The notes beneath the pieces were generated by a model. The model was not told the DNA's origin and ran no database searches. It saw only the letters and a list, made by a program, of their open reading frames with translations. From Candidatus Omnitrophota bacterium (lineage in GTDB: Bacteria > Omnitrophota > Omnitrophia > Omnitrophales > Aquincolibacteriaceae), in the NCBI GenBank assembly GCA_903856085.1, contig CAIOAT010000044.1:25402-89401 (forward strand): a stretch of 64,000 nt of DNA, read 5' to 3'. Both the position numbers and the translations under genes were made by a program. Positions 41,881-64,000 of the stretch are shown in pieces. The number at the start of each line of letters is the position of its first letter. Within the stretch, counting starts at the first letter, position 1.

Positions 41881-44800
41881 ATGGCTGGAACTTTAACGGA
41901 CGATAAAGCCCGACGACGAGAGCGTTTCTCGAAGCGTCTCATTGCGATCTTTGTTGTCGTTGTTTTTACGCTTTTTGACGCCGTTCGCTATGCTCCACAA
42001 GGCTATGCGAGCCCTATTGCTACAGTCGTTGATCCTGTCCTTGCGTCTGTTTCGATTCCCAAGGAACTTGGTAAGGTGGAGGAATCCTTTCGCGGGACTG
42101 CGGGCAAGACTGTGATCTTCATTGAGGACGCCCATGATTCCCTTGAAGCCCAGGAGAATATCGCAAAGCTTATCGGGAAGCTCGTAAAAGAAAATGGGAT
42201 CAAAACGGTTTTTGAAGAGGGCTACGAAGGCTCGGTTCCTACGGATAAGTTTTTTGGTTTTATTCAAGATCCCAAGATCAAACAAAAAGTCTCCTATTTC
42301 CTTTTGGATAAACTCCGTGTCGGCGGCGCGGAATACGCGCATATCAATCGGGTAAACGATTTCAAGCTGATCGGGGTCGAGGATCTCGAGCTGTACGGCG
42401 AGAATATCCAGTCCTACCGAACCTCCTCCCGAAATAGGCAAAGCATCGATGAAGACTTGAAAGAATTGTTTTCACAAATCGCCGTCCTTGCCGACCGGTA
42501 TTTTTCAAAGGAACTAAGGCGTTGGCTAAAGCACAAGGATCGTTTCGGGGAGGGGCAACTGCCGCTTCTTGATTATCTGAAAAGAACGCGTGACATCTTT
42601 CTTCAAAAGTGCTCGGCGCGCATGTTTGGGCAGCAATATCCGGCGGTGACGATCCTTCTCGCTGCGAAGTCATCGCGGGATCCGAAGCTTCTCGATCAGC
42701 TGAACACTTTGGATCTTAAGGTTGTTTTTGACGAAGTTTTGAGGTTGGAACGGGATCTTTCCAAGAGTTTTCTTGAAAATGAGAGAGATCGCAAGATCTT
42801 CGATTATTATCAGGCCCTGGGGCTTCTTAAGAGATTGAATCGAATCGAACTGACTCAGCCGGAATATGAAGCAGCCCAAGAGACGCTTCAGAAATTCGAG
42901 ACGCAAGAATTAGCGAATTTCATAGTATCTCTCACTCATCATTCATTGGTTCTTTCCAAAGAGTGGGAGCATCACATCCAGGATGCTATCCGGTTCTATG
43001 ACGTGGCGCACGGGAGAGATCGATCAGTCGACGTTCGTCTCAGAGAATTTCTTCGGAATAAAGAAGGAGATTCTGCGATTCTTGTGTTTGGCGGGTTCCA
43101 TGCAAGCGGCATCAAGGAGATTCTAAGGCAGCAAGGTCTTTCTTACATCGTAATTTCGCCGAAGATTACTTCCGTTGATAAAAAGCACCGGGATTATTAC
43201 AAACGGCTAATGTCCGAAGGTCGTCACTCCTTCGAAACCCCACTTCTCGTGGCTCGAGCCAACAGGTCTCCGGGCTATTTTTATTTAGCCGCCACAGGCA
43301 AAGAAGAATTTGTTCGTGCGGAACTCCGAGATATTGCTTCTTCCGTCAAGGCGCTTGGAGAGAACGCTGACTCGCTGCTGATTGAGCGCGGCCTCGCTGC
43401 ATTTGATCAATCGCGGGAGCATCAGCTTGTCAATGCAGAGACTGAAACATCGCAGACTCGTTCCGAGGTGCACTTGGATACTGTTCATTTAAGTGCTTTT
43501 CAGCCGGCGGCGGTGGTGAGCCGCCGTTCGGAGATGCGGGTGATGGAACCGGAAGTGCGAAAAGTTCTGGATGAAAAGTTCCAGGCGGTGGCGAATTTTC
43601 TCTCTGCTCGTGAAGAGTATATGCCGGGTCGCAATGTTCCCCTCCGAGACCAATGGGCTCCGACTGAGATCAGTAAGCTTGCGTTTTTAAAAGGGGAGAA
43701 GATCCTTGTCATGATTCTCGGGACGTGGGAGGACAAGGTCGCTTTTGAGGCCGCGCCAATCATCCGGGATCTTCGGGCCCGTGGTTATGATATCAAGGTT
43801 TTGACCAGTGGGAAATACGGGAACAAACCCGGAGTATTCTTTGATGCGCAGGGAAACCGGCTTCCTGAAGCTGTCGGTTACAAGCAAATCTTAGAAAAAG
43901 AAGGGGTGTCCGTGGATTTTGTGGAGCCTGATTCGACGAATTCTGGAGACAATATCCTGTTTTCCAAGAAAAAAATCGATGAGGCCGGATACAAGCCTGA
44001 TGTGATCATCGTGATGCAGAACGGGCTTCTTCAAAAGCGGGCCGGGTTGAGCATTGTCCGCCAGCATTTTGGGATTAAAAATGAAAAAGAAGAACATGAG
44101 GCCAAGAGAAAATTCGACGCCTCCGGCCTCCGGCTCATCAGCTACGCGCCCTATGTACCCAATGTTTCCGGACAAAGCGATCCAGAGGTCCTGCTAACTC
44201 TTGAATACGCATTAAAAGAGGTCGAAGCCCTGAAAAACTATCCCGCAATAGGATATACCATTCCTGTAGCGATCCCAGAGGATGTCCGCCAAGCAGCGGC
44301 AGATCTGACCGCAATGCTGGCTGAAATCAACAAGAGGATCGAAGAAAAAGCTAAAATTAAAGAGCATGTTTCTGACCTCGGGCAGGTGAAAGAGCGTCTT
44401 CGCACCAAATGGAATGAGGTTCGTTGGGTTCACAACAGGATTCCCGGGAAGAAAAATATTCCTGAGCCCGTTGGGCAATGGACTCAAGATGGTTTTTTAT
44501 GGAAAGGCATTTATAACCAGATTGATCCTCATGCTCTGGAAACAGCGATCGATCCCAATCCACCCGCCGGGCAAGAGCCGGCAAAACCAGGCTGGGTATT
44601 CGGGGATTATCCGGATGCCTCTCAAGTTCTTTTTACGGTGGATATCGACGGAGAACAAGGCAGAGTGCTTGTGGCTGGGGACGCGCAGCTTTCCAACGAA
44701 TCCCTTCTTATTCTCGATCGCGATACGCATCTGGTCTTGACGGATGAAAAATCCAATCTTTCGCTTTTGAAATTCCACAGGCGAAGCGGACTGAAAGGTT

Positions 44801-47800
44801 ATATCAATTTATGGGGGATAGGTCAGTTCCCGCGCTTGCACGATCATTTGGTTGAAGATATGCCCATCTTCGGATTACCGCTGAGAAAATCAGGCGGAAA
44901 AGTTGATGGTCTCGAAATGCAGGAGCTTGGGAATTATGCGGCCTCAACGCTGGTTTATACGGATGATGACGATGCGAAGCTTGCGGCGGTCATGGCCAAG
45001 ACCGCGCAGGAATTGTTGGAGGAAAAGATCCCGCATCAGGTGTTTCTTGCGGCCGGAAAGGTCATTTTTGTTCTGCGCGGTAGCGATCCACAGACGCTTC
45101 ATAAAGTCGAAGGGGAAAATTTCGCCGGACGGTACCTTACGGGTCAATTTGTCGGAGGGGTTGTCGGGTATCCGAAGGCGAGTGCCGATAAGATCACGCC
45201 TGAAAAATATCAGGACATAATGAGACGGGTTAGTCAGCCGGTCTCGATACGTGCTCGGATCATTTCAAATTTGCAACAGAAGGGGGTGGTTTCTCCTGCC
45301 CGGAATAATAAACGTTCCGAGATGCGTAAAGATACGGCGGAACAAGTGACGACCGAGATCTATGATCCGAAGCAAGCGGGGATCGATGTCAGTGTGAATC
45401 CCGTGCCAAGCGGGCATTTCCGGTATGACCAGGCGTCGAAACAACATTTCTGGGATGGAAAACAGGTTCTTTTTCGTAAAGACGAAGGCATTGCTAGAGA
45501 ATCCGCAGCTCCAGGAGCCCGGACTTGGCCGGTCGATATTGCCTGGGAAGAACATGAAAAAGATTTTGCGGCGGCTCATCCGTTGTTCGATCTTCACTCC
45601 TATGGAAATCTTTACAACAACGCTGGGTTTGTTGTCTTTGACGGGAAAACAGGCATGCTTTATTACCAGGCCGGGGAAGCCTTTGAGAAAAAAGCGTATT
45701 CGATGCTGGTTTCTTGGAACGATCGCACCGTTACCTCCGAGAATGTCCGTTTCGAACAGATCGCCGGAGGCAAGGCCGGTAAAGTTCAGGTGTTTGTTGA
45801 TGGGCAGTCGGGACCGATTCAGGACAAGATCCGGTTCGCGGTGTTCGGACAGAGATTAATCCACAAAGGCGCCGTGGTGCCTCTTGAGGCGGTCGCAGAT
45901 CAATTCGAGGACCTGTTTCAGCTTTATCGGCTTCCTCAATTCATGCAATGGAGAGAAAACGCGGCGCCAGTCTATGGACGAACGATCGGTGTGGAGGAGT
46001 TGGCCCGTTGGAGGACTACCGGCGATCCCAGGGACAAGGCCTTATTTATGGACGTTGTTCGTCATGATGGCTACATGGAGATTGATCTGACAGGTTATTT
46101 GCGGGAAGAAAAAGACAGCAAAGTCACTGTCAGGACCCTCAAAGAGATCAAGGACGGGGCTCTTACTCCGTTTGGCTATAAAGAAGTGGGGCTCGCGGAG
46201 CCGCAGGCGTTAAAGCGAGGCGAATATTTTATCCAAGACAACAGGCTGCATATTCGTTTTCTCCCTTATCCGTACCCGCATCATGTGCTCGGGATCACGG
46301 CATCGGGGAAAGTCGTTTCGGTTCTTTACATAGGAGACAAATATAAAAAACAGGGCGTTACGCTCCAAGACCTTCCTGAGAGCGTTCGCGAGCGCTATGG
46401 GAATCAGGAGAAAGATCCCATCCAGGAACTCCTCGTGATTGCGCAGGGTCGGGACAGTTTCCGCCGTCGTGACGGAAGACTTTCCGAACGCAGTCCTTAT
46501 ATCAATCTCAAGGGAACTGCCGCCATCCTTTTTGAACGGATCATGCCACCTGCCGCATCTACTTCTCAGGATTTGCTTGCGCCTCGCTCCGAGATGCGGA
46601 ATGCTGATGCGTCAGCGGTAGGCATGGCTGCTGTAAAACGACAAGCCATGGAAGCTCCCGACCCAGAGGGTTTCCTGAAAGTTGTAACAGCGTATCGCCT
46701 CGGAAAAGGATTGCTGACCACCGATAAGACTTTTTTCCTAACGGGTATTTATGACTTTCTTGGAAACACCGATCCCATTATCTCGACTCTGGAAGATATC
46801 GAAAGACGCACGAAGACCGGGCGGCAGCTTTTAGAGGACGTTTGGCAGGATCCTCAACAGCGTTCCAAGCTGTTTGATTTTGCCATTTCATACCATTACA
46901 GCTACACGCGCGAAGACCGGCTTCTAGAATTGGTTCGTAAACTTATCGAGGGGATCCAACAGCGGGGGGATTTTGCTTCGCAGGAAAAAATAACCATTCT
47001 GGACATAGGAACCGCTCCTAAGAAGTTTGGCTCTCCGACCTCGATGCAGACGATGGAAATGTTCCGCGCTGCTTTCCCAGACAAGCAAATAGAACTTAGC
47101 TCCGTAGACATGCAATTCCCAGCTTCATTTAAATTTAATGCCGAAGGAGTATATGTTGATGAGCGGACAGGTATCCGTTACGTCAACTACGACATCCGTA
47201 AGGGACCGTTGCCATCCGCTGATATTGTTATTGCCGTGAATCTGTTGGATCTTTATCAGGATGTTCAGGAGAGGAAACGTATTCGGAAGAATATTTTTCA
47301 ATCCAGCTTGAAGTATGTCGTTACTGGCGTCAAGAGTACGGAGGATATTTTCCGGCGTTCTAACGAGCAATCTGATCAATGGACAAAGATCGCAACAGTC
47401 CAGTTAATGGAGGAATGGTATGCGCAAAGTCTCTACCAAGGATTGGGTTTTTCTTCAGAAAACATAGGCTTCCAGAATTTGGCGGTGCGAAACGACTTGT
47501 ACGTCAATTACGAGTTCATGAAACCGCTTTTCGCGTTGCTCGAGAAGACAAAAACAAGCCGTTATCATGCCGCGTTCCAGGTTCTTACCGTGCTCTTTTT
47601 GCGCGGGGAATTGGAGGCACTTGTGTCGGGTGAGACGGTGAGTTTTCCAATGGAAGGCAGGCCTTTAGCAAAGTACTTTCCCGCAGAGAAGGATCGGGAG
47701 GTTATCCACCAGTTTCTGGTTTTTATGCAGGATCTGAAAAAGACGAGGGTTTTGAAGAATGAGGCATCGAACGATCCGAATCATGTGATCCCCCGGTTCT

Positions 47801-50187
47801 ATGAGTTGATCAATTTGTTTATTCTTGACCAGCACCAAAGGGGCGTGCTTCCGAAGTCTGGAAAAACATTGAAGATCTTATTACTCCAGGCAAGAGCGGA
47901 ACCGTTCGGATATGTTCCGGCCTATCTTCCCATAGGATTACCGGCACTGACGGCTGCTCTGAAAGGGGATGATTATCAGGCGCGCTTGTTCTCGCGTTTA
48001 TTGGTAGATCCCGATATTTACGAAAACTATTTAACCACGGATAAAGATGTTCGAGCGATCGATTTTCAGACCAAGGAGGCGTCATTTGAATTCGAAAAAT
48101 ATCTGTCGGAATTCAAGCCCGACATTGTCGGAATAAGAACGGTTTCAGCTTCCATCAAGGAATCCCAAAGGCTGGCCCGGGTCGCCAGGGCGGTTTTGGG
48201 GAATCATGCGCAGATCCATTTTGGAGGTTATCACATTACTGCGTTGCCAGAGGAAACGATGGCGGAGAACAAGGGGATTGTGGACGTTGGGTTTCTTCAA
48301 GAAGCTGAAGAATCCTATCCGCATTACTTGGCCATGTTCGTCAGCGGTCAGGATCCTGCCTCTGTGCCAGGGATATGCTATTACGACCACACCGGAAAAC
48401 TAGTTAAAACCGCCCCGAGAAGACCCGTGATCCCTTTTGATTATTATCCTTCCTTTATGGATTTTTTCGACATGCTTCCGGATCTTGATCGCTATGCGGA
48501 GCTGATCGTCGATAGCAAGCATGGGAAGATAACTTCCAAGATGGCTTTACTTGTGACGGAGCGAGGATGTAAGGCCCACTGCGCCTTTTGTCCGACTCGC
48601 ATCATGTTTGGCGCTTCGGGGATCAGATTTGATTCTGTCGAAACCGTTCTCAGCATTATGGAGGCCTATTATAAAAGGGGCTATCGGATATTCAATTTCC
48701 GGGATGATAATTTCACCGGGGATAGGCAGAGGGTGATGGCTTTGTCGGATGCCATTATCAAGAAAGGCTGGAAGATAGCATGGACATGCATGTCACGGGC
48801 CGACACGGTGGATGAAGAACTACTGACTAAGATGTACGACAGCGGCCTTTCGATGATCGCTTTTGGGGTGGAAAGCGGATCGGAGGATATTTTAAAGTCC
48901 ATGGGCAAGAGAGAGCTCTTATGGCCGATCAGAAAAGCCAATGTGTGGAGCCGGAAGCTAGGAATCTATTACAAAAATTATTATATGGTGGGTGCCCCAG
49001 GGGAGCAATGGCAGCATATCCTGAGGACATTGCTTTTCATGGCGGATTCCTTCGGAGGTTTTTCAACCATCAATCAAGCCGTTCAAGAAGGTCATGTCGT
49101 TAATGATGGAGAATATAGCGCAGCCTTTGATGGCTTGGTCAAAGAGGTTTCAGGTGCGGGGGAGGGCCTGGAACAATTCCTGACGAGGGAATTGAATTTT
49201 GTTGGGATGAAGCAGGATTCCGTTAACGTGGCTTACGCGATGCCGTATCCCGGTTCCACATGGTATAACCAGATAGGAAAAAAGATATGGATGGAGACCG
49301 ATCTTTTCCGGCATGGTCCCGCGGATCGCGACAATCTTGGCGTTTATAAATCTCCGACGCATACGGTAGAAATGACCCGTGAGGAAATTTCGGAAGCGAG
49401 GGAAGCGGTTGTGGGTTTTTACAAGGCTTTGGAGCAAAAAGATCGCGGAAAAATACTGGAGATCTTGGGAAAAGTTATTGGAAGAAGTCGCTCTGAGCTG
49501 CATGGACCGGAACGCAATCACGAAGAGCTGAAGACTTTGATTTCCCCATCAGGAAAACGTTCCGAAATGCGAGTTGCCCCAGAGGCGATATTAGGGGATG
49601 GCGGAACTCTTCGCGGGATCCCGAGCGCTAGTCCTGTAAAGGCTGTTTCTCGGGCGCGTGCTGACCGGATGATCCGGAGTGTCGGGAAAAATGTGCAGGG
49701 AGCAACGGTGTTCGTGGACGCGGAAGATTTTCCGAACCTCTCTCTGGAACAAAAACAGGAATATTTGATCGTGGCGCTTTCGAATAAAGCGCTTCACGTA
49801 GTAGTCTATAATGAGCATGAGCAGGTGCGTGACGAGTTGTTGGATGCTCTTCTCAAGCTTGACCGCGTGACGAGGACCGACAAAGACCTCGTCGGGGCCC
49901 AAATCAGTTTTGACCGGCCGAATGCGCCGAGCATTCATCTTTCCAAGCGGAACCTTCCATCCCCGGAAATGGTCCAACGTTTCAGGAAGAGGATCGCGTT
50001 TTTCAAAACGCAGGGACAAAATGGTGGAACTTTGGCTGCAGCGCTTCTTTGGTCGTGGTCGGGCGGGGAGGAATCCCGATTGAGGGAGGTGACCATGCAG
50101 GATGGATTCTGGGTCGTTGCTGAGTCCTTGGTTAATGCGCTTCAAGCCAGCTATGAAAGCAATCTTGCTTTTGCGGTCGCGGCCTAA
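41881..50187 (+). CDS. Giant (2768 aa) membrane-anchored multi-module protein G1 (module list in evidence)
   Basis: Single uninterrupted ORF with a GAGAGGA RBS and an N-terminal TM (LIAIFVVVVFTLFDAV). Modules: a TraB/GumN-like N-module, a DUF218/YdcF-like module, a phosphodiester-glycosidase-like module, a class-I methyltransferase-like module and a B12-binding radical-SAM module. The CxxxCxxC motif GCKAHCAFCP is at nt 48568-48591, followed by GYRIFNFRDDNF. R-S-E-M-R recurs four times at module borders. Confidence 0.85.
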   Translation: MAGTLTDDKARRRERFSKRLIAIFVVVVFTLFDAVRYAPQGYASPIATVVDPVLASVSIPKELGKVEESFRGTAGKTVIFIEDAHDSLEAQENIAKLIGKLVKENGIKTVFEEGYEGSVPTDKFFGFIQDPKIKQKVSYFLLDKLRVGGAEYAHINRVNDFKLIGVEDLELYGENIQSYRTSSRNRQSIDEDLKELFSQIAVLADRYFSKELRRWLKHKDRFGEGQLPLLDYLKRTRDIFLQKCSARMFGQQYPAVTILLAAKSSRDPKLLDQLNTLDLKVVFDEVLRLERDLSKSFLENERDRKIFDYYQALGLLKRLNRIELTQPEYEAAQETLQKFETQELANFIVSLTHHSLVLSKEWEHHIQDAIRFYDVAHGRDRSVDVRLREFLRNKEGDSAILVFGGFHASGIKEILRQQGLSYIVISPKITSVDKKHRDYYKRLMSEGRHSFETPLLVARANRSPGYFYLAATGKEEFVRAELRDIASSVKALGENADSLLIERGLAAFDQSREHQLVNAETETSQTRSEVHLDTVHLSAFQPAAVVSRRSEMRVMEPEVRKVLDEKFQAVANFLSAREEYMPGRNVPLRDQWAPTEISKLAFLKGEKILVMILGTWEDKVAFEAAPIIRDLRARGYDIKVLTSGKYGNKPGVFFDAQGNRLPEAVGYKQILEKEGVSVDFVEPDSTNSGDNILFSKKKIDEAGYKPDVIIVMQNGLLQKRAGLSIVRQHFGIKNEKEEHEAKRKFDASGLRLISYAPYVPNVSGQSDPEVLLTLEYALKEVEALKNYPAIGYTIPVAIPEDVRQAAADLTAMLAEINKRIEEKAKIKEHVSDLGQVKERLRTKWNEVRWVHNRIPGKKNIPEPVGQWTQDGFLWKGIYNQIDPHALETAIDPNPPAGQEPAKPGWVFGDYPDASQVLFTVDIDGEQGRVLVAGDAQLSNESLLILDRDTHLVLTDEKSNLSLLKFHRRSGLKGYINLWGIGQFPRLHDHLVEDMPIFGLPLRKSGGKVDGLEMQELGNYAASTLVYTDDDDAKLAAVMAKTAQELLEEKIPHQVFLAAGKVIFVLRGSDPQTLHKVEGENFAGRYLTGQFVGGVVGYPKASADKITPEKYQDIMRRVSQPVSIRARIISNLQQKGVVSPARNNKRSEMRKDTAEQVTTEIYDPKQAGIDVSVNPVPSGHFRYDQASKQHFWDGKQVLFRKDEGIARESAAPGARTWPVDIAWEEHEKDFAAAHPLFDLHSYGNLYNNAGFVVFDGKTGMLYYQAGEAFEKKAYSMLVSWNDRTVTSENVRFEQIAGGKAGKVQVFVDGQSGPIQDKIRFAVFGQRLIHKGAVVPLEAVADQFEDLFQLYRLPQFMQWRENAAPVYGRTIGVEELARWRTTGDPRDKALFMDVVRHDGYMEIDLTGYLREEKDSKVTVRTLKEIKDGALTPFGYKEVGLAEPQALKRGEYFIQDNRLHIRFLPYPYPHHVLGITASGKVVSVLYIGDKYKKQGVTLQDLPESVRERYGNQEKDPIQELLVIAQGRDSFRRRDGRLSERSPYINLKGTAAILFERIMPPAASTSQDLLAPRSEMRNADASAVGMAAVKRQAMEAPDPEGFLKVVTAYRLGKGLLTTDKTFFLTGIYDFLGNTDPIISTLEDIERRTKTGRQLLEDVWQDPQQRSKLFDFAISYHYSYTREDRLLELVRKLIEGIQQRGDFASQEKITILDIGTAPKKFGSPTSMQTMEMFRAAFPDKQIELSSVDMQFPASFKFNAEGVYVDERTGIRYVNYDIRKGPLPSADIVIAVNLLDLYQDVQERKRIRKNIFQSSLKYVVTGVKSTEDIFRRSNEQSDQWTKIATVQLMEEWYAQSLYQGLGFSSENIGFQNLAVRNDLYVNYEFMKPLFALLEKTKTSRYHAAFQVLTVLFLRGELEALVSGETVSFPMEGRPLAKYFPAEKDREVIHQFLVFMQDLKKTRVLKNEASNDPNHVIPRFYELINLFILDQHQRGVLPKSGKTLKILLLQARAEPFGYVPAYLPIGLPALTAALKGDDYQARLFSRLLVDPDIYENYLTTDKDVRAIDFQTKEASFEFEKYLSEFKPDIVGIRTVSASIKESQRLARVARAVLGNHAQIHFGGYHITALPEETMAENKGIVDVGFLQEAEESYPHYLAMFVSGQDPASVPGICYYDHTGKLVKTAPRRPVIPFDYYPSFMDFFDMLPDLDRYAELIVDSKHGKITSKMALLVTERGCKAHCAFCPTRIMFGASGIRFDSVETVLSIMEAYYKRGYRIFNFRDDNFTGDRQRVMALSDAIIKKGWKIAWTCMSRADTVDEELLTKMYDSGLSMIAFGVESGSEDILKSMGKRELLWPIRKANVWSRKLGIYYKNYYMVGAPGEQWQHILRTLLFMADSFGGFSTINQAVQEGHVVNDGEYSAAFDGLVKEVSGAGEGLEQFLTRELNFVGMKQDSVNVAYAMPYPGSTWYNQIGKKIWMETDLFRHGPADRDNLGVYKSPTHTVEMTREEISEAREAVVGFYKALEQKDRGKILEILGKVIGRSRSELHGPERNHEELKTLISPSGKRSEMRVAPEAILGDGGTLRGIPSASPVKAVSRARADRMIRSVGKNVQGATVFVDAEDFPNLSLEQKQEYLIVALSNKALHVVVYNEHEQVRDELLDALLKLDRVTRTDKDLVGAQISFDRPNAPSIHLSKRNLPSPEMVQRFRKRIAFFKTQGQNGGTLAAALLWSWSGGEESRLREVTMQDGFWVVAESLVNALQASYESNLAFAVAA

Positions 50188-50579
50188 TCGAACCAATGCT
50201 TATTCAGTCTTTTTTGTGATTTTAGCTGATTAAAACCATCAGACATCCTCTTTCCATGCCTGCGGAGAGTTGCTGTATTTTTTAAATGCCTTTTCGTCGA
50301 AGTTCTCGGCGGTTTCTGGCAAGCTTTCACTAGTAGGCCCCTCCTGAATTTCAAAAAAATCTTCAAGCTTAAAATTGGTTAATTTTAAAAAACTTTTTAT
50401 TATCATGATAAATACGCTTATCTTAAAAATCAAATTTTAGCCAAAAAGTCTCTGTTTTGTGTGTTTCATAATGCTATAAGAAATTATAAGGAATATTTTA
50501 TAAGTTAATATATTTTAAAGGAGTGTTATAACCAGTTGCTTGGTAACAGGTTACATCATTAAATTTTTTTTAGCTTTGC

Positions 50580-50608
50580 TTGACTGGGAACCTTCTATTG
50601 TGTATATT
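50580..50608 (+). promoter_or_regulatory. Near-consensus sigma70 promoter for G2: TTGACT-17nt-TATATT
   Basis: TTGACT at 50580-50585, an exact 17-nt spacer, TATATT at 50603-50608. It sits in a ~30% GC spacer about 107 nt upstream of the G2 ATG. Confidence 0.5.
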
Positions 50609-56700: not shown

Positions 56701-59700
56701 GTCCCGTGGCTGCTGCGTCAGAGTTGTTCGTTTCCGCGCTGGAGCCGGCCTCGGCAAAATTTACCACCATGGATCTTCCTATGCCGACGACGGGGATACG
56801 CGATATTTTGATTACTGCCATGAAAGATAATCCCATGTCGCGGCAGGCTGGGGTTGAAAAGGGCATTAAGGATAAAACCGTTGAGTCGTTCGCTTGGTGG
56901 TACCGCTGGATCACCCTAGACCTGCAAGTTTCATATAATTTTATGCCGCGCGATCTTCCCTTGTATCAGAATAAGTCCGGATCGGGACCCAGCAAAGATG
57001 TGGATTTTTCATTGGGTTGGGAGGATGCCGGAAGCGGGAACATAAATCTCGGGCTTCCGATCTATTCCCCCGAGGGATATCCCGCCGAGCACATGGAGGC
57101 TGTTCCTATTCTCGATGCGAATGGACAACCGACCGGGGACACAGCGCTTGTTAGCAGACCGGGTATCCCCACAACGCCATTGACGCAAAGTCAGTTTGAT
57201 GCGCTACGGGGCGTGACTTTCACTCCAGACGGCAACAACTATGTGCTGTCGGGATATCAGCCCGTGCTGGATAGTGTTGTCATTCCGATGGGAGATGTCA
57301 ATATCACCAAAGGGCTCCTGGTGCAAAACCTGAATGCGATCGCCGGGAACGAAAGCTTTTGGAAGCTCTTCAATCTCCCTGCCGGCACGGCTTCCCAACT
57401 GGTCAGTGATCCGGCCTATCAAAAGGCCATGGGATTTGCGAGCTATTTTGCGTCGCGCTATGACAACCCGCTTAATACGGGCGATAACCTCAAAACTGTT
57501 TTTAAAGGCGCGACTCTTCCGCAGATCATGGAATCGATGGCGCGCATGAAAGCGACGGCAAGAAAGAATCTTGGCCGTGATTTTAGTTTGGATAATCCCT
57601 ATGATGCGGCGCTTCTGACTTATCTTTCCAGAGCGGATCTCACGGATCAGGCGGAAGGAACTACGATCGTCCGCGAGATCTTAAAAGAGCGGGATTGGGA
57701 AGCGAAACTGATCCTGCGTTTTGAACCCCTGAACCTGGCTCGAAGCCGCCAGGCGAAGATCAGCAAGGCGGAAGCGGAAGCTGCGAATGCGGACCTCCTG
57801 AAAACCGAGACGACCGTCCTTCGGAACACTACCCAGCAGCTTTATGTGATCGCGCTGGCGAATCAACAGATTGCTGACAAAGAAAAACTTATCATAGCGT
57901 TTGAAGCGGACGATGCCGAGCAGCGCGCTGTGCGGGGTGTCGAGGATAACTCCCTGACGCATACCCGCATTACAAGTGAACTCCAAAAACTCAAGATCCA
58001 GATCATCGTCCTGAAGACCGAGCGGGACGAGGCCAAAAGGAAAGTCCTCGAACTGGCGGGGCGGCAGCCGGGTATAGATCTGGGTTATCCGGTCGAGGAC
58101 ATTACTCTTAAAGTCGTCGGTGATGCTGTTGCCCAGGTACCACTTTCGCAGGCCGATGTTCAGGCCGTGATCGAAAGAGCGTTCGCGAGTTTGCATCAGG
58201 CCGTGGCATCGAAGGCAGCGCTAGGTGGAATTGACGCAACTTTGGCCGTTCCGCAAGTCACCGTTGACATTTTAAGGATGGCAGGGATATGGGACCTCGG
58301 CGATAAGGTTGCCGTCGAGATCCGCTTAGATCTCAGTTGGCAGATCAAAAGTCTTTTTGAGAGTAAGGTTGCAAATGCCCTCTTTGAATCCGAAGCCTAC
58401 AAGTTCGCGTCACGCCTTCGCGGGATCTACGAACGGCATAACCTGCTTGAGCGAGAAAGTGTCCATACCGCAGAATTTATCAAATCGTTGGAAAATGGGG
58501 TTTCAGCGCAGGATCGTTTGATTGCTGAGATCAAGAACGATTCTAACAAGCACTATCGCCGAGATCTGAGTCTTGTGCAAGCCCAGAAAGACCGGGAGAA
58601 AATGCAGGAAGACCTCGACGGTTCCAGGCTGGCTCTCCAGTTGATTCAGGATGAGTTGCGGAATTATACAAAAACGGACGCCCAGATCGGGAAGCTGCTC
58701 GGAGAATTCACCAAGAAGGATTCCGGACGAGCGAAGATCATACAGACCGCGATTAGCGCCATGCGGGCCGATGTCGCGAAGGCATGGGCTGCTCAAGATT
58801 CTGTAAATCGTGATGCTATGATCCAAGAGGCTCAGACTCTGGCGGATCGATTAGCTTCGAGCGAGGCGGAATCGGCGCGGGTCCATGAGGAGATCTTACG
58901 CGAAGCAGATTATAACCTTGCCAGCATTCGTAAAGATGCAAAACTGGATGCCCTCAATTATAACGTCTCCAATTGGCTGCGACTTTCCTTGTCGGGTGGA
59001 ATCGGTTGGGGGTGGGGAGATCGAAATGAAAAGGATATTACGCTTGAAGCGACGCAGTGGAAATTACGCGCGGACGCTCAGGCGACCGCCAAAGTTACTT
59101 TGTATGATCCGACACTTTGGGCAAGAGGTCGTCAGCGGCAATTGGCCCAAGATACTGCTAAAAAACTTTTAGACCGGTCAGGTGCAGAACTGGCCGCGTC
59201 CGTCTCCGGATGGCTGAACAATGTTCGTCGTGAATCCGAACTCCTCAATCTGACCGAAGCGACATTGAAGACGAAGCAAATCGAGCTTAAAGGCGCCAAG
59301 GACGAGGCCGATGCCGAGTTGGGTCGTACTACGCCGGCCAAGGATCGTCTGGCGGTCTTAGCAAAGTCTGAAGGAGAGCGTCAAAAGCTTTATTCCTGGC
59401 GGGCGAAGGTCAGGATCGCCAGCGCAGAGGCGAATGTCGAAGCGGCGAGGATCAAGGACGAGGCCGCACGCAATAATCTTTTCAAAGTCATGATGCAATT
59501 CAAGTCGTTTGCTTTTGCCGGGGATAAATCGCCCGCGGCAGCAAAGCCGATTGCTCCCTCTAAGGAGGCGCAGCCGTCGATCAGCATGTCACCTTTTGCA
59601 CCCATCACGGATGCCGCGGGTAGAATCTCTGAATCCGGGACTGCACAACTGAAGATTTTGGCCAAGGATTTTGACGAACTATTTCGCAGCCTCGTCAGGG

Positions 59701-62700
59701 AGACAGAGGATCAGACTTCGGGTATGGGGAGCATGAGCACAAACCGGCTCCGGTACGAACAGCTTTATGACGTGAACCGCTTGCTGATGCCGCTTCAGTC
59801 CCGTTTGTCCTTGAATGATCAGGAACAGGTTCAGAAGATTCTTGGGATTTTGAAGAGTATCGATCCGGAAAAAAATGCTTCTTTGGGCAAGGAATTGTCG
59901 ACGATCGGCCGGGCGATTTTGACCAATGAAAAACTTACGGATCGACAGAGAGTGGAGAAGCTTTTTAAAGCATTTGAAGGGAAACTCGATGCTAAAAAAT
60001 ACCCGGCTCTCCGGCAACAGCTCATGAGTGTCCGAACCGCCATGTTGCACAGTGATGAAGCGATGGTAAACGAAGTTCTAAAAGCCATACCGGGGGCGAT
60101 GGATCCCGCGAAATATCCGGAGATTTTCAAAGCCAGCCGCGAGCTCCGGGCGATGCAAGCGAAGCTCGTCGCTCGGATCAAGGAAATCCAGAACCCGAAA
60201 CTTACGGCTACCGAAAAACTCAATCGACTGACCGAGCCCCTGCAGAGCTATCTTGAAAAGCAGAAGAAATTTCAGCAGCTTTTCCAGGTCGTAGAGCAGA
60301 CGGCCCTCATCGACAGGGAGTTGAAAGATATCCTTGAAAATTCCAAGGGCTACTCGGAGCCCGTACGGTTGACGATGCTTACCGGAGTGATCAGGGATTA
60401 TCTTGCCGCGGAGATCCTTTACGCCAAGAGCGACTATTTCATTAAAGATCACAAACCAAAATTGTGGAGAGAATTCGAAAAAACACGACGCCAGATCAGC
60501 GAGATTTCAAATATTGCCGCGGTCGAAGAGGTTATGCGCAAACTGGACAGCTCGGTTTGGGAAAAGAGGGAATTTGCCCATCAACTGGGCCTTGAAAAGT
60601 GGGCGTTCGGGGTCAGCGTTGGTTACAGCATTGGTTTTACCAAGGATGGCGTCTCGTCGACGTCTTTCGGGGTAACTCCATGGTGGGGGATGATGCCGTG
60701 GGCGGCGGACAAAGCCATTGGGTGGGTTCCTTTGCTCGGGAAACCGATCACCGATATTCTAGGCGTCAATCAAGATGGAAAGAATATGCAGATCCGGAAA
60801 TACATGACCGACATGAGTATCGGCGTGTTGTCGGCAGAGCAGACCCTGCGCAGCCTGGATATCACCTCAAGCCAGTTCCGGAATGAATACGCCTATTTGG
60901 TCCGGATGAAGCAGCTAACCACAGGTTTGGCGGCGGCGATCGAGGCATGGAGAAACCAGCATAAAGAGTTTTTGAATACGATCGGTGTGGATGCTACCGA
61001 AGCGGCGCTTTCCGGGGATACGACCATGGAGGCGCGTCAGCTTGCCGAGATTCTTAAGCTTGAAGAAAAAATACGGCACATCAACGGAGAATTAAGGAAT
61101 GTTCAGAACCGGTTGAGAGAGCACGGTGTGGATCCTGAAACTGTGACGACCGAGGGAGTGGCCAACGGCGATGATGTGCGGCAAGCGTGGCGGACGGGGA
61201 AGGGTCCGCTGGCAGGCCACGTAGGCGGTATGGAATCCCTTGGAACCACGGGGGGGGAGACACTTGATGATATTGCCCGGCAATCCACCGAGTATCAGAT
61301 GGCCGTGTTAGGGCAGAAAGTTTCGGCAATGGAAGAGGAATATACGACCCGCACGCACAGTTTTGGAGATTTTCCAGGAGTCACTTCATCCGGTCTCTTT
61401 TCCGATAATCCGTTCGATTCACCCGTCCGTGCCTTTGGCCAGGTTGAGAGGATCGATGGGGTTTATGATTCAGCGGGAACACGGGTTGGCACACAAACGT
61501 TCGATGTTACCGCGACCGATCTTTCGAGGACCATCACAGTCGATCTGAATCTGGGCGAGATTCTCGGAGGGTTCCAGGGGTCGGTTTACCGTTTGCGTGC
61601 TGAGAATGCCGGCATTGAGGCCGAGCGGATCCTGAAGGAAAAGAAAGCGGAGATCGCGCAGGCCATTTTTGATTATGAAACAGAAGCCGCGGCGATCGAG
61701 AAGATGGAACCTCAGGATCGACTCATGGTTTACGCGATCGTGAGCGGTAATCAAAAGCTCCAGGCGACCCTTCAGGCGACTCGAGGTGAACTTTTACAGA
61801 CCGAGAGTGAGATCCACGGCGCGGCAGTGCGATATATGGAAGCTCGCAATACGCTCAACAGCAAGAAAAGCGAACTTTTGGGGAAAGTCGGGTTCCGGAT
61901 CGAGAAGCTCCCGGATACGAGTCGTGAGGAAGGCCAGGGTTTATCACTCATCGGCGCAGATGAAATGCTCAAGGCCATGACTTCACCTGAAAAATCAAAG
62001 GCGTTCGTGGAGAAGTTAAAGAGTACAGGGATGCAAGATCCGAAGATTCAGACGCTTCAAAATGAACTGGAGCAATTGTCTCTGAATCGCAGGAGCCTCT
62101 GGAGCGATGCGGTGACAAGCGTGTGGTTCCAGGGCGGCTATCAGGATAGTGCGCTAAGAGCCAAGGCAGGGCTTGATCGCCGGCTTTGGGGGGGCGACAT
62201 GTGGGTTCGACTTCACGAAAACAAGGAACGTCAGGCTCAGGTTCGGATTGCGATGGAGGCCCAGGATAACAAGACTCGTCACGCATTTGAGACCTACCGT
62301 GCGAGGCTCAAGAGTACAGATGCTCAGGTGCAGCTCGACCAGGAACGCTTGAATGATCTCATGAAAAGATTCCCGGAGGTGACCCAGGGCGGGTTGGTCC
62401 GCGAGGTTGGGATCGATTTCGCGTTGGATTTTATGCGGGAACTGAATGAATCCTACCGGGCTTATTTTTTCGCGGTCAGGACGCATGCCCGCAACCAGCT
62501 GGAACTGGTGCAATTCCTCAATCAGAACAATATCGATGTCTCCAAGGTGGGTCTTGAATGGACGGACACCGCCATTCCAATGTTGCCCGTCGTCCCGGAG
62601 GTCGCAAAAGACATGACGGCTGGGACGGTCGAGAAGATTACCGTTGGGCCAGGGCAGGAAATAGATCTGGATACTTTTAAACAGCCTGATCCCGCAAAAA

Positions 62701-64000
62701 ATGAAAAACCATTTTTACTTCCGCAAGAAAATAGATTTCCGATTGGGCTCGATGGTGAAGCGCTCGGGATCATGGAAGCGCTTTCAGTTCGAACGGTTCC
62801 GGATCCGAAGGCTCCGCCCAAAGAACAAGCCACTCAGCAACGGATCATTCATGATAATCAGGTCATGCTGGCGAATATCACGAGCGTCGTGGCGGATCAG
62901 CATAACCTGACCCAGACCCTGGGGGATGAATTGGGTCCGCGATGGTTGGATCCGTTGAAGGAAATAGCCCAATTAAATACTAAAAACAGGATTTTGGAGC
63001 GGCTTCTGCTGCGTCCCGGCGAATCACTGGATACTGTCTCAAGAGAAGAACTTCTTCGCAGGCTGAAGGCCTCCTGGTCGCAGGACTGGTTGCCGACTTA
63101 CAGGACATCCCCGTCGGTAACTGATCAAATGAAAGATTCCGGGATCAATCTTAGGGAGATCGGCCTGCTTGATTTTATCGCCCGTCACGTTGATATGATG
63201 CTCAGTAGCGAAAAATTCAGTCAGGAGACCGGGATCAATACTCCGCAGCAAGCGACCGAATTCATCAAGACGGTTTTTGAGTCGTTGCCGGAAGCCAAGG
63301 CTATTCTTGACGAACAATACCGGTCACTCAAGGCTCCTGCCAAGGGGGCCAGTGACAAACGAGGTATTCCTCTCAATATTAATGATCCTAATGAATTTGG
63401 AATGATCTGGGGTGTGGTGTTCTATTCCAGGCTGGAAGTCGCCAAAGCTGAAAAGGAAATTGCAAAAATATCTGCGGTCCTAAAGACGCGTACGCTTGAA
63501 GAAAGTGAAAGCCAAAGGCTGAACGAATTACGAGCACGGATCCATGATCTTAAGGCCTTGAAGTTCAGTGATAAGGAGAGAAAGCTTCTTGAGGAAAAAT
63601 TTCCGGGGTATTCGCTGAATAAACGCTGGCGCGATGTCATGGATTTCCGTCTGAATCGCGACAAGCAGGATGCCGGCTATGAACTTGCCAGATTGTTCCG
63701 ATCGATCGCGGAAGGGAAATTTGATCCTGTGACGGGCGTTGTCACTTTGAAACAAATCCAGGCTGACAAGATGTCGGAAGATGCCCGGACGCTGGCGATC
63801 CAATCTTGGCTGAAGCTTTCGGGGGTCGATCAGAACGATTGGACCAAAGTCGCCTATGTGACGGGCCGGCTTGTGAGTTTGTTTGCGGATACCAAACAAA
63901 TGCCGATCCCGACGAGTCAGGACATCGAAAACTATCCCGGATTGGCAAAAGCTGCTGAGGCCACTGACCGGTTGGCAAAGCATAGAATTTCGCTCAGCAA
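50715..64000 (+). CDS. Giant protein G2, 3' end beyond window (>=4428 codons): paralogous TraB/GumN-like N-module, polytopic membrane region, Pro/Ala-rich repeats, coiled-coil tail
   Basis: Frame 0 (positions divisible by 3) stays open from the ATG at 50715 to the window end. An in-frame TAA at 50685 bounds it upstream. Codons were checked by hand at 52260, 52980, 53400, 58500 and 63960. It is absent from the ORF track only because no stop is reached, and the track has no >=60-aa frame-0 plus-strand ORFs after 50187. Signal/TM LRTVACLTAFVFLFTSVVW. IQDAHVNDEAQRNIA and GGFHTPGIEKYLREKDISYIVVAPRITKTIDKK align with G1. Confidence 0.8.
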   Translation, partial: MISWQQPMIKPWLRTVACLTAFVFLFTSVVWDGGVKAYAAASNSVSVTPIETFKANAASSLIDRPDLPDSYGTIKGTFKGSRDQIVLHIQDAHVNDEAQRNIAHILQYFSEKYQLGLVSLEGASGELYPELFSFFPNKQARQNVADYFLKEGRLTGPEYLAIVEKPAMTLYGVEDKELYEENRKAYVDALQFKDRDEKILAELNKVLEGISRFVFPEEMRELVRRRAAFQEGGPELVSYVRYLVELARKHNIALDEYPGMHSLIKLVDLEKQVDFDKAEKETDALINDLKHVLTHEKLSRFLTNTVHFRMKKMKRAAYYGYLQDEIQGVSVAQSGGEELTTKYANVMAYVEYMKLYDAIDVSIFDEIDFLEKTVKNKLFTNPEQVQLDHILRIYDIYCKMFDFTLTKQDAEFYYTYQNEFKSETFVSFLTPLMSKYHFTYGLPSQVKTLDQDLPRVERFYKAALERDQVLIERAVEKTLASGQKISAIVTGGFHTPGIEKYLREKDISYIVVAPRITKTIDKKKESALYDAALRQAPLSIEKVLTETFLQPKTGVLNDPRFQLQAWLAISPKGEFDFKSDVALFFPLTAATNIFEVVNAAREQARQEGKSLSNEQITPLVASEIERMKKDAARDLSGGDLSKVEALLSMFHPEAFSGNVLWVPAGNSGDFLAFVLHGKTEKISEEPGAVRGTRQTVSFGPEEKTALSFYRVRGSFVPDAIRGMVRAEARVLATPQTGPIAVVAGPNAKQEARDREIAAQIQAIRAEARMKATKEDVRAAARVQANLPMFLDFIKAFGYKGPIDRIQAAVIRPADPKEDKPTVEFLKILSDPELKQRLQALAVFLSSLNPEELATKKLSQNELRLFLLWGAKANGLKKYPELAKILEDILAGRTPSVSQAATPAEVSAAKAPAVTTPAAIPTAATLATETADQVKARVEKEQGGYFGSYVRRGVLGWSAVGLIAGLLLGMIMPATVVAFPLVFGFVAFVLRALRAWSVKSGITVQANPKGAGWIVTSANGKKWLEGLSAPDLSTIQDKNEQRQASIDYKLQNWPAYRKMHESKIFSDDSESEAAAKAEASAKKRILQFVGIGTAVGVILGATTVLPVVATVAVSAITAGFLAAAVLKTRAEWKKQGGTQNIMKQGVFTAIGLALKIFVSMPFHLLDGFILQYFRLRINYFILGAKNQRWITNAETQAMVENARTHEADKNLSRTDRFIRTDLGYGIWVTLQASQIAALYEFFQKRAKLFVYGQLSGIVLTAAGTSLPVFAVLGVGFWGYIIVKQVLAYRAAQAKGQNLPAHWLRNRILGHLIFATIFGGLMWLGVSPPSWAVASPGTGDVATKALNLFGIPIPSFPAIPGVPHFDLLNLGAVIQTKGTIFGFLGDKVHLTFQAIASSATLNFLLAVTTQIPNKMREIMMRDTMVDMARILVPQAKNLKEAFDGLAKYGITPSNFSLSGILALSGEKQTPEWMALSAEQRAIVLKLIERDLKDRIYGMNRYDAGLALTALGRAIRENDPEGQVSIPEKLARGQGIGYRMRVNAAARREVLTSGSFWVSMVFGTFSMWVVTHEIAAIVHYAEGIDKIISSALGVDFHLFGTGIKGIEGDQLKQKEHAEMAQRGEHVAFTDRLIASGLLSSLQTSVQEVSTNFVVQPYMIAKRTADQLPAIKANLGKIADERFGFAPTKAKADFIDSAHRQIAVMEKATYWSIVGQKLEGVAHFAGSAFNALGSVLVTSARAESLPPMMVPQTEVKEGLQAEIPATKPAEVAAVAPVLPAPEAPRVSVEAPAEVTKPAEVAVVAPVQPAPEVPKAEVKEAPAVPETALKLEMPSPSLRPLTDVQPAPEAPKVSVEAPAEVANPKTVAQPALPTKIFEISRENVREGAKGAERIAAKTIVLTLKAEDMEALIREGKALAFSYKDNGFWKAKTKIPRALNDPEVTHFSIGNDVYKIGLPTTVVGVQATPKAVTSSTSVKAPQPVAAKQSPAQKIGLAAAAAGPVAAASELFVSALEPASAKFTTMDLPMPTTGIRDILITAMKDNPMSRQAGVEKGIKDKTVESFAWWYRWITLDLQVSYNFMPRDLPLYQNKSGSGPSKDVDFSLGWEDAGSGNINLGLPIYSPEGYPAEHMEAVPILDANGQPTGDTALVSRPGIPTTPLTQSQFDALRGVTFTPDGNNYVLSGYQPVLDSVVIPMGDVNITKGLLVQNLNAIAGNESFWKLFNLPAGTASQLVSDPAYQKAMGFASYFASRYDNPLNTGDNLKTVFKGATLPQIMESMARMKATARKNLGRDFSLDNPYDAALLTYLSRADLTDQAEGTTIVREILKERDWEAKLILRFEPLNLARSRQAKISKAEAEAANADLLKTETTVLRNTTQQLYVIALANQQIADKEKLIIAFEADDAEQRAVRGVEDNSLTHTRITSELQKLKIQIIVLKTERDEAKRKVLELAGRQPGIDLGYPVEDITLKVVGDAVAQVPLSQADVQAVIERAFASLHQAVASKAALGGIDATLAVPQVTVDILRMAGIWDLGDKVAVEIRLDLSWQIKSLFESKVANALFESEAYKFASRLRGIYERHNLLERESVHTAEFIKSLENGVSAQDRLIAEIKNDSNKHYRRDLSLVQAQKDREKMQEDLDGSRLALQLIQDELRNYTKTDAQIGKLLGEFTKKDSGRAKIIQTAISAMRADVAKAWAAQDSVNRDAMIQEAQTLADRLASSEAESARVHEEILREADYNLASIRKDAKLDALNYNVSNWLRLSLSGGIGWGWGDRNEKDITLEATQWKLRADAQATAKVTLYDPTLWARGRQRQLAQDTAKKLLDRSGAELAASVSGWLNNVRRESELLNLTEATLKTKQIELKGAKDEADAELGRTTPAKDRLAVLAKSEGERQKLYSWRAKVRIASAEANVEAARIKDEAARNNLFKVMMQFKSFAFAGDKSPAAAKPIAPSKEAQPSISMSPFAPITDAAGRISESGTAQLKILAKDFDELFRSLVRETEDQTSGMGSMSTNRLRYEQLYDVNRLLMPLQSRLSLNDQEQVQKILGILKSIDPEKNASLGKELSTIGRAILTNEKLTDRQRVEKLFKAFEGKLDAKKYPALRQQLMSVRTAMLHSDEAMVNEVLKAIPGAMDPAKYPEIFKASRELRAMQAKLVARIKEIQNPKLTATEKLNRLTEPLQSYLEKQKKFQQLFQVVEQTALIDRELKDILENSKGYSEPVRLTMLTGVIRDYLAAEILYAKSDYFIKDHKPKLWREFEKTRRQISEISNIAAVEEVMRKLDSSVWEKREFAHQLGLEKWAFGVSVGYSIGFTKDGVSSTSFGVTPWWGMMPWAADKAIGWVPLLGKPITDILGVNQDGKNMQIRKYMTDMSIGVLSAEQTLRSLDITSSQFRNEYAYLVRMKQLTTGLAAAIEAWRNQHKEFLNTIGVDATEAALSGDTTMEARQLAEILKLEEKIRHINGELRNVQNRLREHGVDPETVTTEGVANGDDVRQAWRTGKGPLAGHVGGMESLGTTGGETLDDIARQSTEYQMAVLGQKVSAMEEEYTTRTHSFGDFPGVTSSGLFSDNPFDSPVRAFGQVERIDGVYDSAGTRVGTQTFDVTATDLSRTITVDLNLGEILGGFQGSVYRLRAENAGIEAERILKEKKAEIAQAIFDYETEAAAIEKMEPQDRLMVYAIVSGNQKLQATLQATRGELLQTESEIHGAAVRYMEARNTLNSKKSELLGKVGFRIEKLPDTSREEGQGLSLIGADEMLKAMTSPEKSKAFVEKLKSTGMQDPKIQTLQNELEQLSLNRRSLWSDAVTSVWFQGGYQDSALRAKAGLDRRLWGGDMWVRLHENKERQAQVRIAMEAQDNKTRHAFETYRARLKSTDAQVQLDQERLNDLMKRFPEVTQGGLVREVGIDFALDFMRELNESYRAYFFAVRTHARNQLELVQFLNQNNIDVSKVGLEWTDTAIPMLPVVPEVAKDMTAGTVEKITVGPGQEIDLDTFKQPDPAKNEKPFLLPQENRFPIGLDGEALGIMEALSVRTVPDPKAPPKEQATQQRIIHDNQVMLANITSVVADQHNLTQTLGDELGPRWLDPLKEIAQLNTKNRILERLLLRPGESLDTVSREELLRRLKASWSQDWLPTYRTSPSVTDQMKDSGINLREIGLLDFIARHVDMMLSSEKFSQETGINTPQQATEFIKTVFESLPEAKAILDEQYRSLKAPAKGASDKRGIPLNINDPNEFGMIWGVVFYSRLEVAKAEKEIAKISAVLKTRTLEESESQRLNELRARIHDLKALKFSDKERKLLEEKFPGYSLNKRWRDVMDFRLNRDKQDAGYELARLFRSIAEGKFDPVTGVVTLKQIQADKMSEDARTLAIQSWLKLSGVDQNDWTKVAYVTGRLVSLFADTKQMPIPTSQDIENYPGLAKAAEATDRLAKHRISLS
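55990..56291 (+). repeat. In-frame imperfect tandem ~87-nt repeats encoding Pro/Ala/Val/Glu-rich units (KPAEVAAVAPVLPAPEAPRVSVEAPAEVT ...) inside G2
   Basis: Units at about 56001-56087 and 56088-56170, with a third partial unit at 56229-56291 highly similar to the first. The minus-strand shadow ORF 55829-56155 is a reverse-strand reading of these repeats. Confidence 0.6.

Follow-up and report, generated by a model that had tools for sequence, protein, structure and literature searches.

A stretch of 64,000 nucleotides (nt) from a Candidatus Omnitrophota bacterium (assembly GCA_903856085.1, contig CAIOAT010000044.1, positions 25,402–89,401; hereafter the window) contains two giant genes, designated G1 and G2, whose products begin with a common domain, the cap. 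A recurring pentapeptide, the delimiter, appears at the module boundaries of G1 and of many related Omnitrophota proteins. In the explanation that best accounts for these features, each product would start with a Sec-type signal peptide or anchor followed by the cap, of ca. 450 amino acids (aa); G1 would be a beads-on-a-string polyprotein composed of the cap, three delimiter-bounded cargo segments (M2 to M4) and a conserved C-terminal module (M5), with the pentapeptide R-[S/A]-E-[L/V/M/A/I/T]-R at each junction, and G2 would be a second, anciently diverged capped gene whose body forms one unit. The pentapeptide would most likely act as a site-specific recognition code through which the polyprotein would be processed into separate proteins and, less firmly, the cap would be the leading and most economical cis-encoded candidate for the protease. 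We judge this explanation, taken as a whole, to be about evenly balanced, and hold its descriptive part with high confidence.

G1 and G2 Share an N-Terminal Cap

Gene G1 (41881–50187, + strand) is an intact open reading frame (ORF) for a capped, polyprotein-like product of 2,768 aa with multiple modules, whereas gene G2 (50715–64000, + strand) is cut by the end of the window and codes for a capped product of at least 4,428 aa. From 50688 onward, the G2 frame remains open through the last base of the window, and its best start is the ATG at 50715, preceded by GAGAGAGGA; because the frame exceeds 4,400 codons at 51% GC, a chance ORF is excluded. Both genes are separated by an AT-rich spacer of 527 nt (50188–50714) that holds a sigma-70-like site, TTGACT-17-TATATT (50580–50608), found in a consensus scan; this match to the consensus alone suggests that G2 may have a separate promoter.

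A preliminary description of the window had presented G1 and G2 as adjacent and co-directional genes that start with a signal or transmembrane (TM) helix and a homologous module, and then diverge. ORF analysis confirmed their arrangement and the continuity of both frames, and pairwise BLASTP comparison upheld the paralogy of their N-terminal modules, with two collinear high-scoring segment pairs (HSPs; G1 19–234/G2 14–241, E = 5e-19, and G1 282–435/G2 363–523, E = 3e-12), each with 28% identity, and no further significant match. The common module occupies ca. 440 aa in G1 and ca. 530 aa in G2, with complete divergence beyond it. The N-terminal helices were likewise recovered by hydropathy, at aa 20–38 of G1 (41938–41994, + strand), following a Lys/Arg-rich start, and at aa 12–30 of G2 (50748–50804, + strand), followed in the sequence by AYA-AAS. 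N-termini of cap homologs show a positive, Lys/Arg-rich n-region, an h-region of 12–17 residues and a small-x-small c-region, and we infer from this pattern that the cap N-terminus is a Sec-type signal peptide or signal anchor. Neither G1 nor the capped proteins P0082 and P0023 have a second TM helix.

The cap extends over aa 54–470 in G1 (42040–43290, + strand) and, as delimited by BLASTP with the G1 cap, over aa ca. 70–530 in G2 (50922–52304, + strand), where it belongs to a divergent subfamily with residues D91, H93, E121 and H494 and with the conserved pattern IQDAH...LEGA...GGFHTPG. Family-invariant residues, in G1 numbering, are D83, H85, Q91, E113-G114, R379, G404-G405-F406-H407, Y422 and P427, and the spacing between the His and the Glu is 28 in 78 out of 78 caps, as it is in G2 (H93, E121). 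The catalytic set of the TIKI superfamily is thus kept in the cap (D/E-x-H, a Glu 28 residues further on and a C-terminal GGFH). A confident AlphaFold model of the shared module, with a predicted local distance difference test score (pLDDT) of 90, has an alpha/beta core in which helices flank a central parallel beta-sheet, as in the TIKI/TraB/EreA/ChaN superfamily, and its fold matches those of TraB, BcR135/EreC, ChaN, HopBA1 and RRSP. Judged from this model and from the conserved residues, the cap is a predicted hydrolase domain of the TIKI/TraB/EreA superfamily with intact catalytic residues. Domains of this superfamily are often extracytoplasmic or membrane-associated.

The TIKI/TraB/PrgY/GumN/ChaN/EreA superfamily includes the endopeptidases TIKI and RRSP as well as erythromycin esterases, and shares with the cap the acid-x-His motif, the Glu at +28 and the C-terminal G-x-x-H. 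The spacing of 28 is identical to that of Bcr135 (H85/E113) and RRSP (H3902/E3930) (PMC6254334); in the RRSP endopeptidase, the arrangement is E3900-x-H3902...E3930...H4030, and its two His and two Glu are essential for cleavage of the peptide bond (PMC6254334). Unlike the superfamily, the cap has a helical insert of ca. 220 aa between the strand of the Glu and that of the GGFH, an Asp instead of the first Glu, and an N-terminal position in giant ORFs. The likeness to TraB/GumN/PrgY noticed in the preliminary description therefore stands for the fold and the active site but not for membership in the Pfam family, as G1 aa 1–548 gave no hidden Markov model (HMM) match in Pfam at E ≤ 1, including TraB/GumN (PF01963). 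Additionally, the shared module had no match in NCBIfam, and no PDB chain was matched by the family profile.

The Cap Heads a Large Family of Giant Omnitrophota ORFs

Cap relatives were sought in one genome per GTDB species and their loci were examined with 10-kb flanks. This search for giant ORFs with the shared module, suggested in the preliminary description, was productive and yielded at least 191 ORFs in Omnitrophota metagenome-assembled genomes (MAGs), most of them giant. The best 80 of the 191 loci are distributed over 50 assemblies, a single one of which may contribute as many as five, and their 79 cap-bearing ORFs sum to 215,394 aa. Most capped ORFs exceed the 10-kb flank, and hence reach at least 3,800 aa. 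Many are preceded, on their own strand, by the final part of a further large ORF, so that giants in tandem are a common arrangement. In Omnitrophota, giant ORFs with the cap as their standard N-terminus form a large, multi-copy family.

All named homologs of the shared module, as well as the 80 genome loci, are from Candidatus Omnitrophota MAGs, which agrees with the link to this phylum drawn from gene size alone; the exceptions among the labels of homologs are many titles reading "uncultured bacterium" and one reading "Planctomycetales." Neither the G1 nor the G2 product itself was present in the collections searched, the nearest sequences being a cap with 65% identity to that of G1 (locus L001) and an N-terminus with 84% identity to that of G2 (P0049). 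Both giant genes of the window are real and belong to the chromosome of an Omnitrophota bacterium.

The cap also heads shorter proteins with GGDEF, HD, response-regulator or HEAT domains (P0082, P0087, P0093, and P0088), and a few distant cap proteins are labeled as PVC group, Candidatus Theseobacter or Elusimicrobiota. An apparent case of the cap as a separate gene, in locus L012, was an artefact, with a masked run of Ns (ca. 11330–11345) falling exactly at the expected first RSExR and producing a false split of the ORF.

A Pentapeptide Recurs in G1 and in Other Capped ORFs

The sequence RSEMR occurs four times in G1, at aa 549, 1145, 1569 and 2560, when only 0.001 occurrences are expected from composition (P = 5e-14). 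The first of these delimiters (43525–43539) marks the junction of the cap region with M2 and aligns with the RSExR column of the homologs, and the other three are found at 45313–45327, 46585–46599 and 49558–49572, all on the + strand. The first delimiter-like motif of G1 is RAELR, at aa 479 (43315–43329, + strand), 71 aa past the GGFH, which aligns with RSELR or RAEVR of the homologs. Two of the canonical copies are preceded by a degenerate one ending in His, namely RSEVH at aa 527 (43459–43473, + strand), 22 aa upstream, and RSELH at aa 2537 (49489–49503, + strand), 23 aa upstream, forming two pairs (43459–43539 and 49489–49572). The four RSEMR copies are encoded by CGT/CGC TCN GAR ATG CGN, and the differences among them in third codon positions indicate selection on the peptide. 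The delimiter, which is the most distinctive feature of G1, was absent from the preliminary description.

In the 79 capped ORFs, RSE[MVLI]R was found 279 times, against 1.4 after shuffling, an enrichment of roughly 200-fold. There were 33 further copies in other ORFs, all of which have at least 460 aa and share the strand of the capped gene, and none in ordinary neighboring genes of the capped loci, for which other ORFs of at least 200 aa were scanned. All large ORFs together contained 318 copies of RSE[MVLI]R and 0–8 of the control motifs (reversed motif, 0; Asp for Glu, 0; Lys at both ends, KSE..K, 2), as well as 65 copies of the variant with Ala for Ser; A, I, and T were also found at the variable position. 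The flanks of the delimiter are not conserved and contain fewer hydrophobic residues (25% vs. 33%, P = 7e-54); delimiters sit in hydrophilic linkers. Successive delimiters have a median distance of 325 aa; a smaller group forms pairs about 20–60 aa apart, and the segment enclosed by such a pair resembles a short spacer peptide. A delimiter was present within 400 aa after the cap in 72 out of 76 cases, at a median of 103 aa past the GGFH, and delimiter density did not correlate with the density of TM helices.

Delimiters Coincide With the Boundaries of Exchangeable Modules

Segment M2 of G1 (aa 554–1144; 43540–45312, + strand) contains a weak DUF218-like stretch at aa ca. 631–729 (Pfam DUF218, E = 2.3e-5, below the gathering score). 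M3 (aa 1150–1568; 45328–46584, + strand) is bounded by delimiters, had no match in Pfam and, by BLASTP, recurs in other capped giants. The N-terminal part of M4 (aa 1574–2559; 46600–49557, + strand), M4a, is without assignment and is followed by a B12-binding domain (aa 2017–2144; 47929–48312, + strand; PF02310, 43.8 bits) and a radical SAM domain (aa 2228–2386; 48562–49038, + strand; PF04055, 58.4 bits). Both domains score above the Pfam cutoffs, in agreement with the enzyme modules that had been proposed for G1. With these two domains and a CxxxCxxC motif (CKAHCAFC) at aa 2230, the region of aa 2017–2500 resembles class B (B12-dependent) radical SAM enzymes of the HpnJ/BchE-like type; nevertheless, it falls far below every NCBIfam equivalog cutoff (the closest, HpnJ-like, gave 2e-37 and 129 bits, vs. 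a cutoff of 578) and, unlike those enzymes, is part of a chain of 2,768 aa behind a signal-like N-terminus.

Module M5 (aa 2565–2768; 49573–50184, + strand) shows 50–63% identity to the C-termini of ORFs from loci L002, L003 and L009, where it is also preceded by a delimiter. Besides G1, it ends 7 of the 33 complete large ORFs (those of L002, L003, L009, L016, L032, L034, and L046). It comprises ca. 190 aa with the pattern ATVFVDAEDF...VVYNE...GTLAAALLW...DGFW, and a second C-terminal family ends six other large ORFs. No sequence relatives of M2, M3, M4a or M5 were found in PDB.

Comparison with other loci places the module ends at the delimiters. The matches to M3 span aa 1533–1940 in L071 (E = 2e-64), with a delimiter at 1520, and aa 2933–3271 in L006, with delimiters at 2914 and 3353, and in a second, upstream ORF of L006 the match ends at 1518, with a delimiter at 1527; the ends of the M3 matches lie within ca. 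20 aa of delimiters. Protein P0023 has the order cap, RSEMR, cytidylate kinase, RSELR. Overall, 137 delimiter-bounded segments match 80 Pfam families, which include HATPase_c, methyltransferases, GNAT, NAD-epimerases, radical SAM, HD, WD40, sugar transferase, and FHA. Between G1 and the G1-type ORF of L002, only the cap (57% identity) and the C-terminal ca. 230 aa (44%) are shared, and the ca. 2,000 interior residues of G1 are unalignable. These comparisons of sequence indicate that delimiters coincide with module boundaries and that genomes freely swap the cargo of the interior but retain the cap and the C-terminal module.

Possible Roles of the Delimiter

The shuffling of cargo between genomes could be taken to mean that the delimiter is a feature of the DNA, such as a recombination joint, a repeat or an internal start, or that the giant ORFs are artefacts of assembly or annotation, a possibility that could also draw on the frequency of M, V, and L, residues encoded by start codons, at the variable position and on the interruption of the G2 orthologs in two loci (a stop and a frameshift in L081, a frameshift in L083). 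We consider this very improbable. The four copies in G1 differ at third codon positions, no DNA repeats were found, and a role as internal translation start was discarded, as the bases that precede the Met codon (CGT TCC GAG ATG) do not resemble a Shine-Dalgarno sequence and the variable position can also be A, I or T. Additionally, independent data show uninterrupted frames of 2,768, at least 4,428, and 7,727 codons, and the cap family is present in at least 50 assemblies.

The context of the delimiter allows for a second reading, in which the pentapeptide would not be cut and would serve in linking, docking or pausing (for example, as a handle for a partner, for the helical insert of the cap or for the membrane, or as a pause for co-translational folding), the proteins being intact, membrane-tethered multi-enzyme scaffolds. 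Its symmetric context and its location in hydrophilic linkers are consistent with this role, and the conservation of single frames over thousands of codons suggests a benefit from covalent linkage or co-expression; a preprint from 2026 takes such proteins as membrane-anchored assemblies (bioRxiv 10.64898/2026.06.07.730766). However, the strictness of the motif (both Arg, Glu and not Asp, Ser or Ala only) between unconserved flanks resembles the recognition site of an enzyme, paired delimiters resemble excised spacers, and every member appears to be headed by a hydrolase domain with intact catalytic residues. We consider an uncut motif fairly unlikely.

Processing at the delimiters, as suggested by the comparative analysis of their sequences, is in our opinion a serious possibility that we hold tentatively, at slightly short of an even prospect. 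The more specific proposal that R-[S/A]-E-x-R would be the cleavage code of Omnitrophota giant proteins, read by the TIKI-like cap as a cis-encoded protease, is at present rather unlikely.

Several points weigh against the main explanation as a whole. The evidence for cleavage is solely comparative. Cytoplasmic cofactors are required by the cargo (radical SAM, methyltransferases, GNAT, and ATPase, with GGDEF and CMP kinase in relatives), and yet the N-terminus looks like a Sec signal that can be cleaved off. The cap lacks a match to the TraB/GumN HMM, its first acid is Asp instead of Glu, and the Foldseek E-value of its model is weak (7e-3), while the known substrates that the RRSP paper gives for TIKI-family proteases are unlike RSExR (PMC6254334). 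Distant cap proteins keep the catalytic motif without any delimiter in the ca. 520–1,570 aa available for each, so cutting delimiters cannot be the sole function of the cap. Finally, judging from the HSP of 78% identity with its ortholog P0041, G2 appears to have lost the canonical site that this ortholog has after the cap.

The Body of G2

Beyond the cap region, G2 contains two RAEAR motifs, at aa 725 and 764 (52887–53018, + strand), which we tentatively regard as candidate degenerate delimiters that would separate the cap region from the body. They are followed by a cluster of TM helices predicted by Kyte-Doolittle hydropathy at aa ca. 955–1330 (53577–54704, + strand), which substantiates the membrane-embedded segment of the preliminary description and has a matching cluster in P0041, and by imperfect repeats rich in Pro, Ala, Glu and Val at aa ca. 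1740–1870 (55932–56324, + strand), with a weak match to the N-terminus of P0044. The remaining body (aa 2016–4371; 56760–63827, + strand) is mostly helical and collinear with P0041, P0042, and P0044. No Pfam domain was identified in the 4,428 aa of G2, even at E ≤ 1 on pieces, and the body had no match in PDB. BLAST did not reveal internal repeats, nor is there a DNA tandem repeat at the Pro/Ala-rich stretch. Of 1.84 billion representatives, an exhaustive HMMER search with aa 2300–3499 retrieved only six relatives; nothing was obtained with aa 2020–2960 in a word-based search, and the C-terminal 449 aa had no relative in the genome or metagenome contig collections. The idea of a TolC-like outer-membrane channel for the body, prompted by a pattern recognized by eye, gained no support: there was no match in Pfam at E ≤ 1 (OEP repeats, PF02321) or among PDB sequences, and a single-sequence AlphaFold2 model had a pLDDT of 50 and was unusable.

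The ortholog P0041 has 7,727 aa and shows 78% identity to the N-terminus of G2 over 653 aa; its body is collinear with that of G2, with 29–34% identity by BLASTP. Since aa 4371 of G2 pairs with aa 5608 of P0041, ca. 2,000 residues of G2 are probably situated beyond the window, and its full length is probably about 6,500–7,700 aa. The last 2,100 aa of P0041 had no match in Pfam. Orthologs of G2 have RSELR, RAEVR or RSEIR after the cap, and P0041 contains only two delimiters, one after the cap, at aa 613, and the other before the last ca. 500 aa, at aa 7227, a placement that fits with delimiters separating functional units and with the body as a single unit. The body of G2 is probably a huge, membrane-embedded and fast-evolving single unit.

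The Locus Behind tRNA-Ala Is Variable

A tRNA-Ala(CGC) gene (41496–41569, + strand; ARAGORN and Rfam) is the upstream neighbor of the giant genes, and the position behind a tRNA that had been remarked on earlier is conserved in L002, L081, and L083. The order in L002 is as in the window, with genes for a patatin, a thiolase, an AMP-binding enzyme, a hydrolase and tRNA-Ala, followed by a G1-like ORF and an ortholog of G2. The block from the patatin to tRNA-Ala(CGC) (29977–41569 in the window) is also syntenic in L081 and L083, the latter having in addition SPOR, PilZ, and YajQ genes upstream of it. In L083, whose flanking genes are 88–92% identical to those of the window, tRNA-Ala is directly followed by a G2-type gene, and the same arrangement is found in L081. 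The slot behind tRNA-Ala thus varies, with G1 present in the window and in L002 and absent from L081 and L083, which indicates that G1 is dispensable or lineage-specific. A recent tandem duplication, as the tandem paralogs might have suggested, is not borne out, because the 28% identity of their caps denotes old paralogs of different subfamilies and G1 is missing from the two closest relatives.

The G2-type genes of L081 and L083 are 73–84% identical to G2 in their N-terminal part but only 22–26% in the body, when the flanking housekeeping genes are 80–92% identical; the G2 body has therefore undergone extreme local divergence or replacement. Both genes are broken: in L081 (7859–20780), codon 973 is followed by an in-frame stop and the frame shifts by +1 near 12.5 kb, and in L083 (10001–23894) a shift after codon 1297 precedes an ORF of 7,903 aa. 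Sequencing error, pseudogenisation and recoding are indistinguishable as the origin of these breaks, which are in short-read assemblies of other species and have no bearing on the ORF in the window, although they indicate that the gene is not continuous everywhere.

The rest of the window is ordinary bacterial chromosome, coding for MurG, MurC, FtsA, the glycine cleavage system, UvrD, LepA and an M16 peptidase, as well as for SPOR proteins, YajQ, a cNMP-binding patatin, a thiolase, an acyl-CoA-ligase-type enzyme and an alpha/beta hydrolase. When called from its first ATG, the ORF for the alpha/beta hydrolase shares 44 nt with the end of the AMP-binding gene (40560–40603), and its true start may be further downstream.

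The low identity of the G2 body (<30%) beside neighbors with 88–92% is what would be expected of a surface or interaction protein, and would favor a third reading, in which the signal would export the chain as in MARTX toxins, the cargo would be effectors freed at the delimiters in a prey or host, and G2 would be an envelope or translocation partner. An export of this type would accommodate the Sec-like N-termini on cargo that needs cytoplasmic cofactors; moreover, the MARTX effector RRSP has the fold of the cap, and a predatory lifestyle has been proposed for Omnitrophota. As occurs in MARTX toxins and viral polyproteins, G1 consists of several independent modules in one chain, with conserved ends and swappable cargo, a protease-fold domain in cis and a short recurring junction motif. 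Unlike MARTX toxins, G1 and G2 contain no RTX repeat or C80 cysteine protease according to Pfam, and no secretion-system family was among the matches of the 10 largest ORFs in the first 25 kb and of the genes just upstream, which are housekeeping genes. Also unlike MARTX and viral polyproteins, the cargo is composed of metabolic and regulatory enzymes of housekeeping type (epimerases, methyltransferases, kinases) rather than typical toxins, the genes are chromosomal and multi-copy, and the processing of G1 is putative. Furthermore, the absence of G1 from L081 and L083 implies that its linkage to G2 is not obligate. We consider MARTX-like export improbable.

Discussion

Giant genes have been described in Omnitrophota, including a "multi-enzyme metabolic cluster" class (bioRxiv 10.64898/2026.06.07.730766) and Archaeovorin and Dockerin types (bioRxiv 10.1101/2023.11.21.568195). 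Capped ORFs resemble the described giants in their N-terminal signal or TM helix and their rapid sequence turnover, and tile the same repertoire as the multi-enzyme class of the 2026 preprint (methyltransferase, HATPase, GNAT, HD, and radical SAM). They differ from the giants of the 2026 catalog, which has a cut-off of 10,000 aa, in that G1 has 2,768 aa, G2 at least 4,428 aa and its ortholog 7,727 aa. The undescribed envelope or surface system envisaged in the preliminary description is not supported, as the cargo of G1 and its relatives consists of cytoplasm-type enzymes; giant multi-enzyme Omnitrophota proteins, moreover, were already published. Term searches of both Omnitrophota giant-protein preprints gave no mention of the cap family or the pentapeptide, which does not establish their absence from the literature; a search for the pentapeptide strings returned irrelevant matches only, and a full-text search for Omnitrophota with polyprotein returned nothing relevant. 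Giant multi-enzyme Omnitrophota genes were thus already known, and what appears to be new here, from the sequences compared, is the cap family and the RSExR delimiter.

The cap constitutes a large protein family that lacks a Pfam or NCBIfam model. Capped giants also sharpen a paradox, namely that of cytoplasm-type enzymes behind a Sec-type signal, which is the same that the 2026 preprint meets between signal and cytoplasmic cargo (bioRxiv 10.64898/2026.06.07.730766). Whether Omnitrophota giants act as a single chain or as many products is an explicit question; West-Roberts et al. state that the cleavage points of the giants were not known, which blocked analysis per product. The delimiter and the cap make this question testable. 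If the delimiter is a cleavage code read by the cap, capped giants would be chromosomal bacterial polyproteins in which one product gives rise to a swappable set of enzymes, and these enzymes would possibly be released outside the cytoplasm of the producer or in a prey cell.

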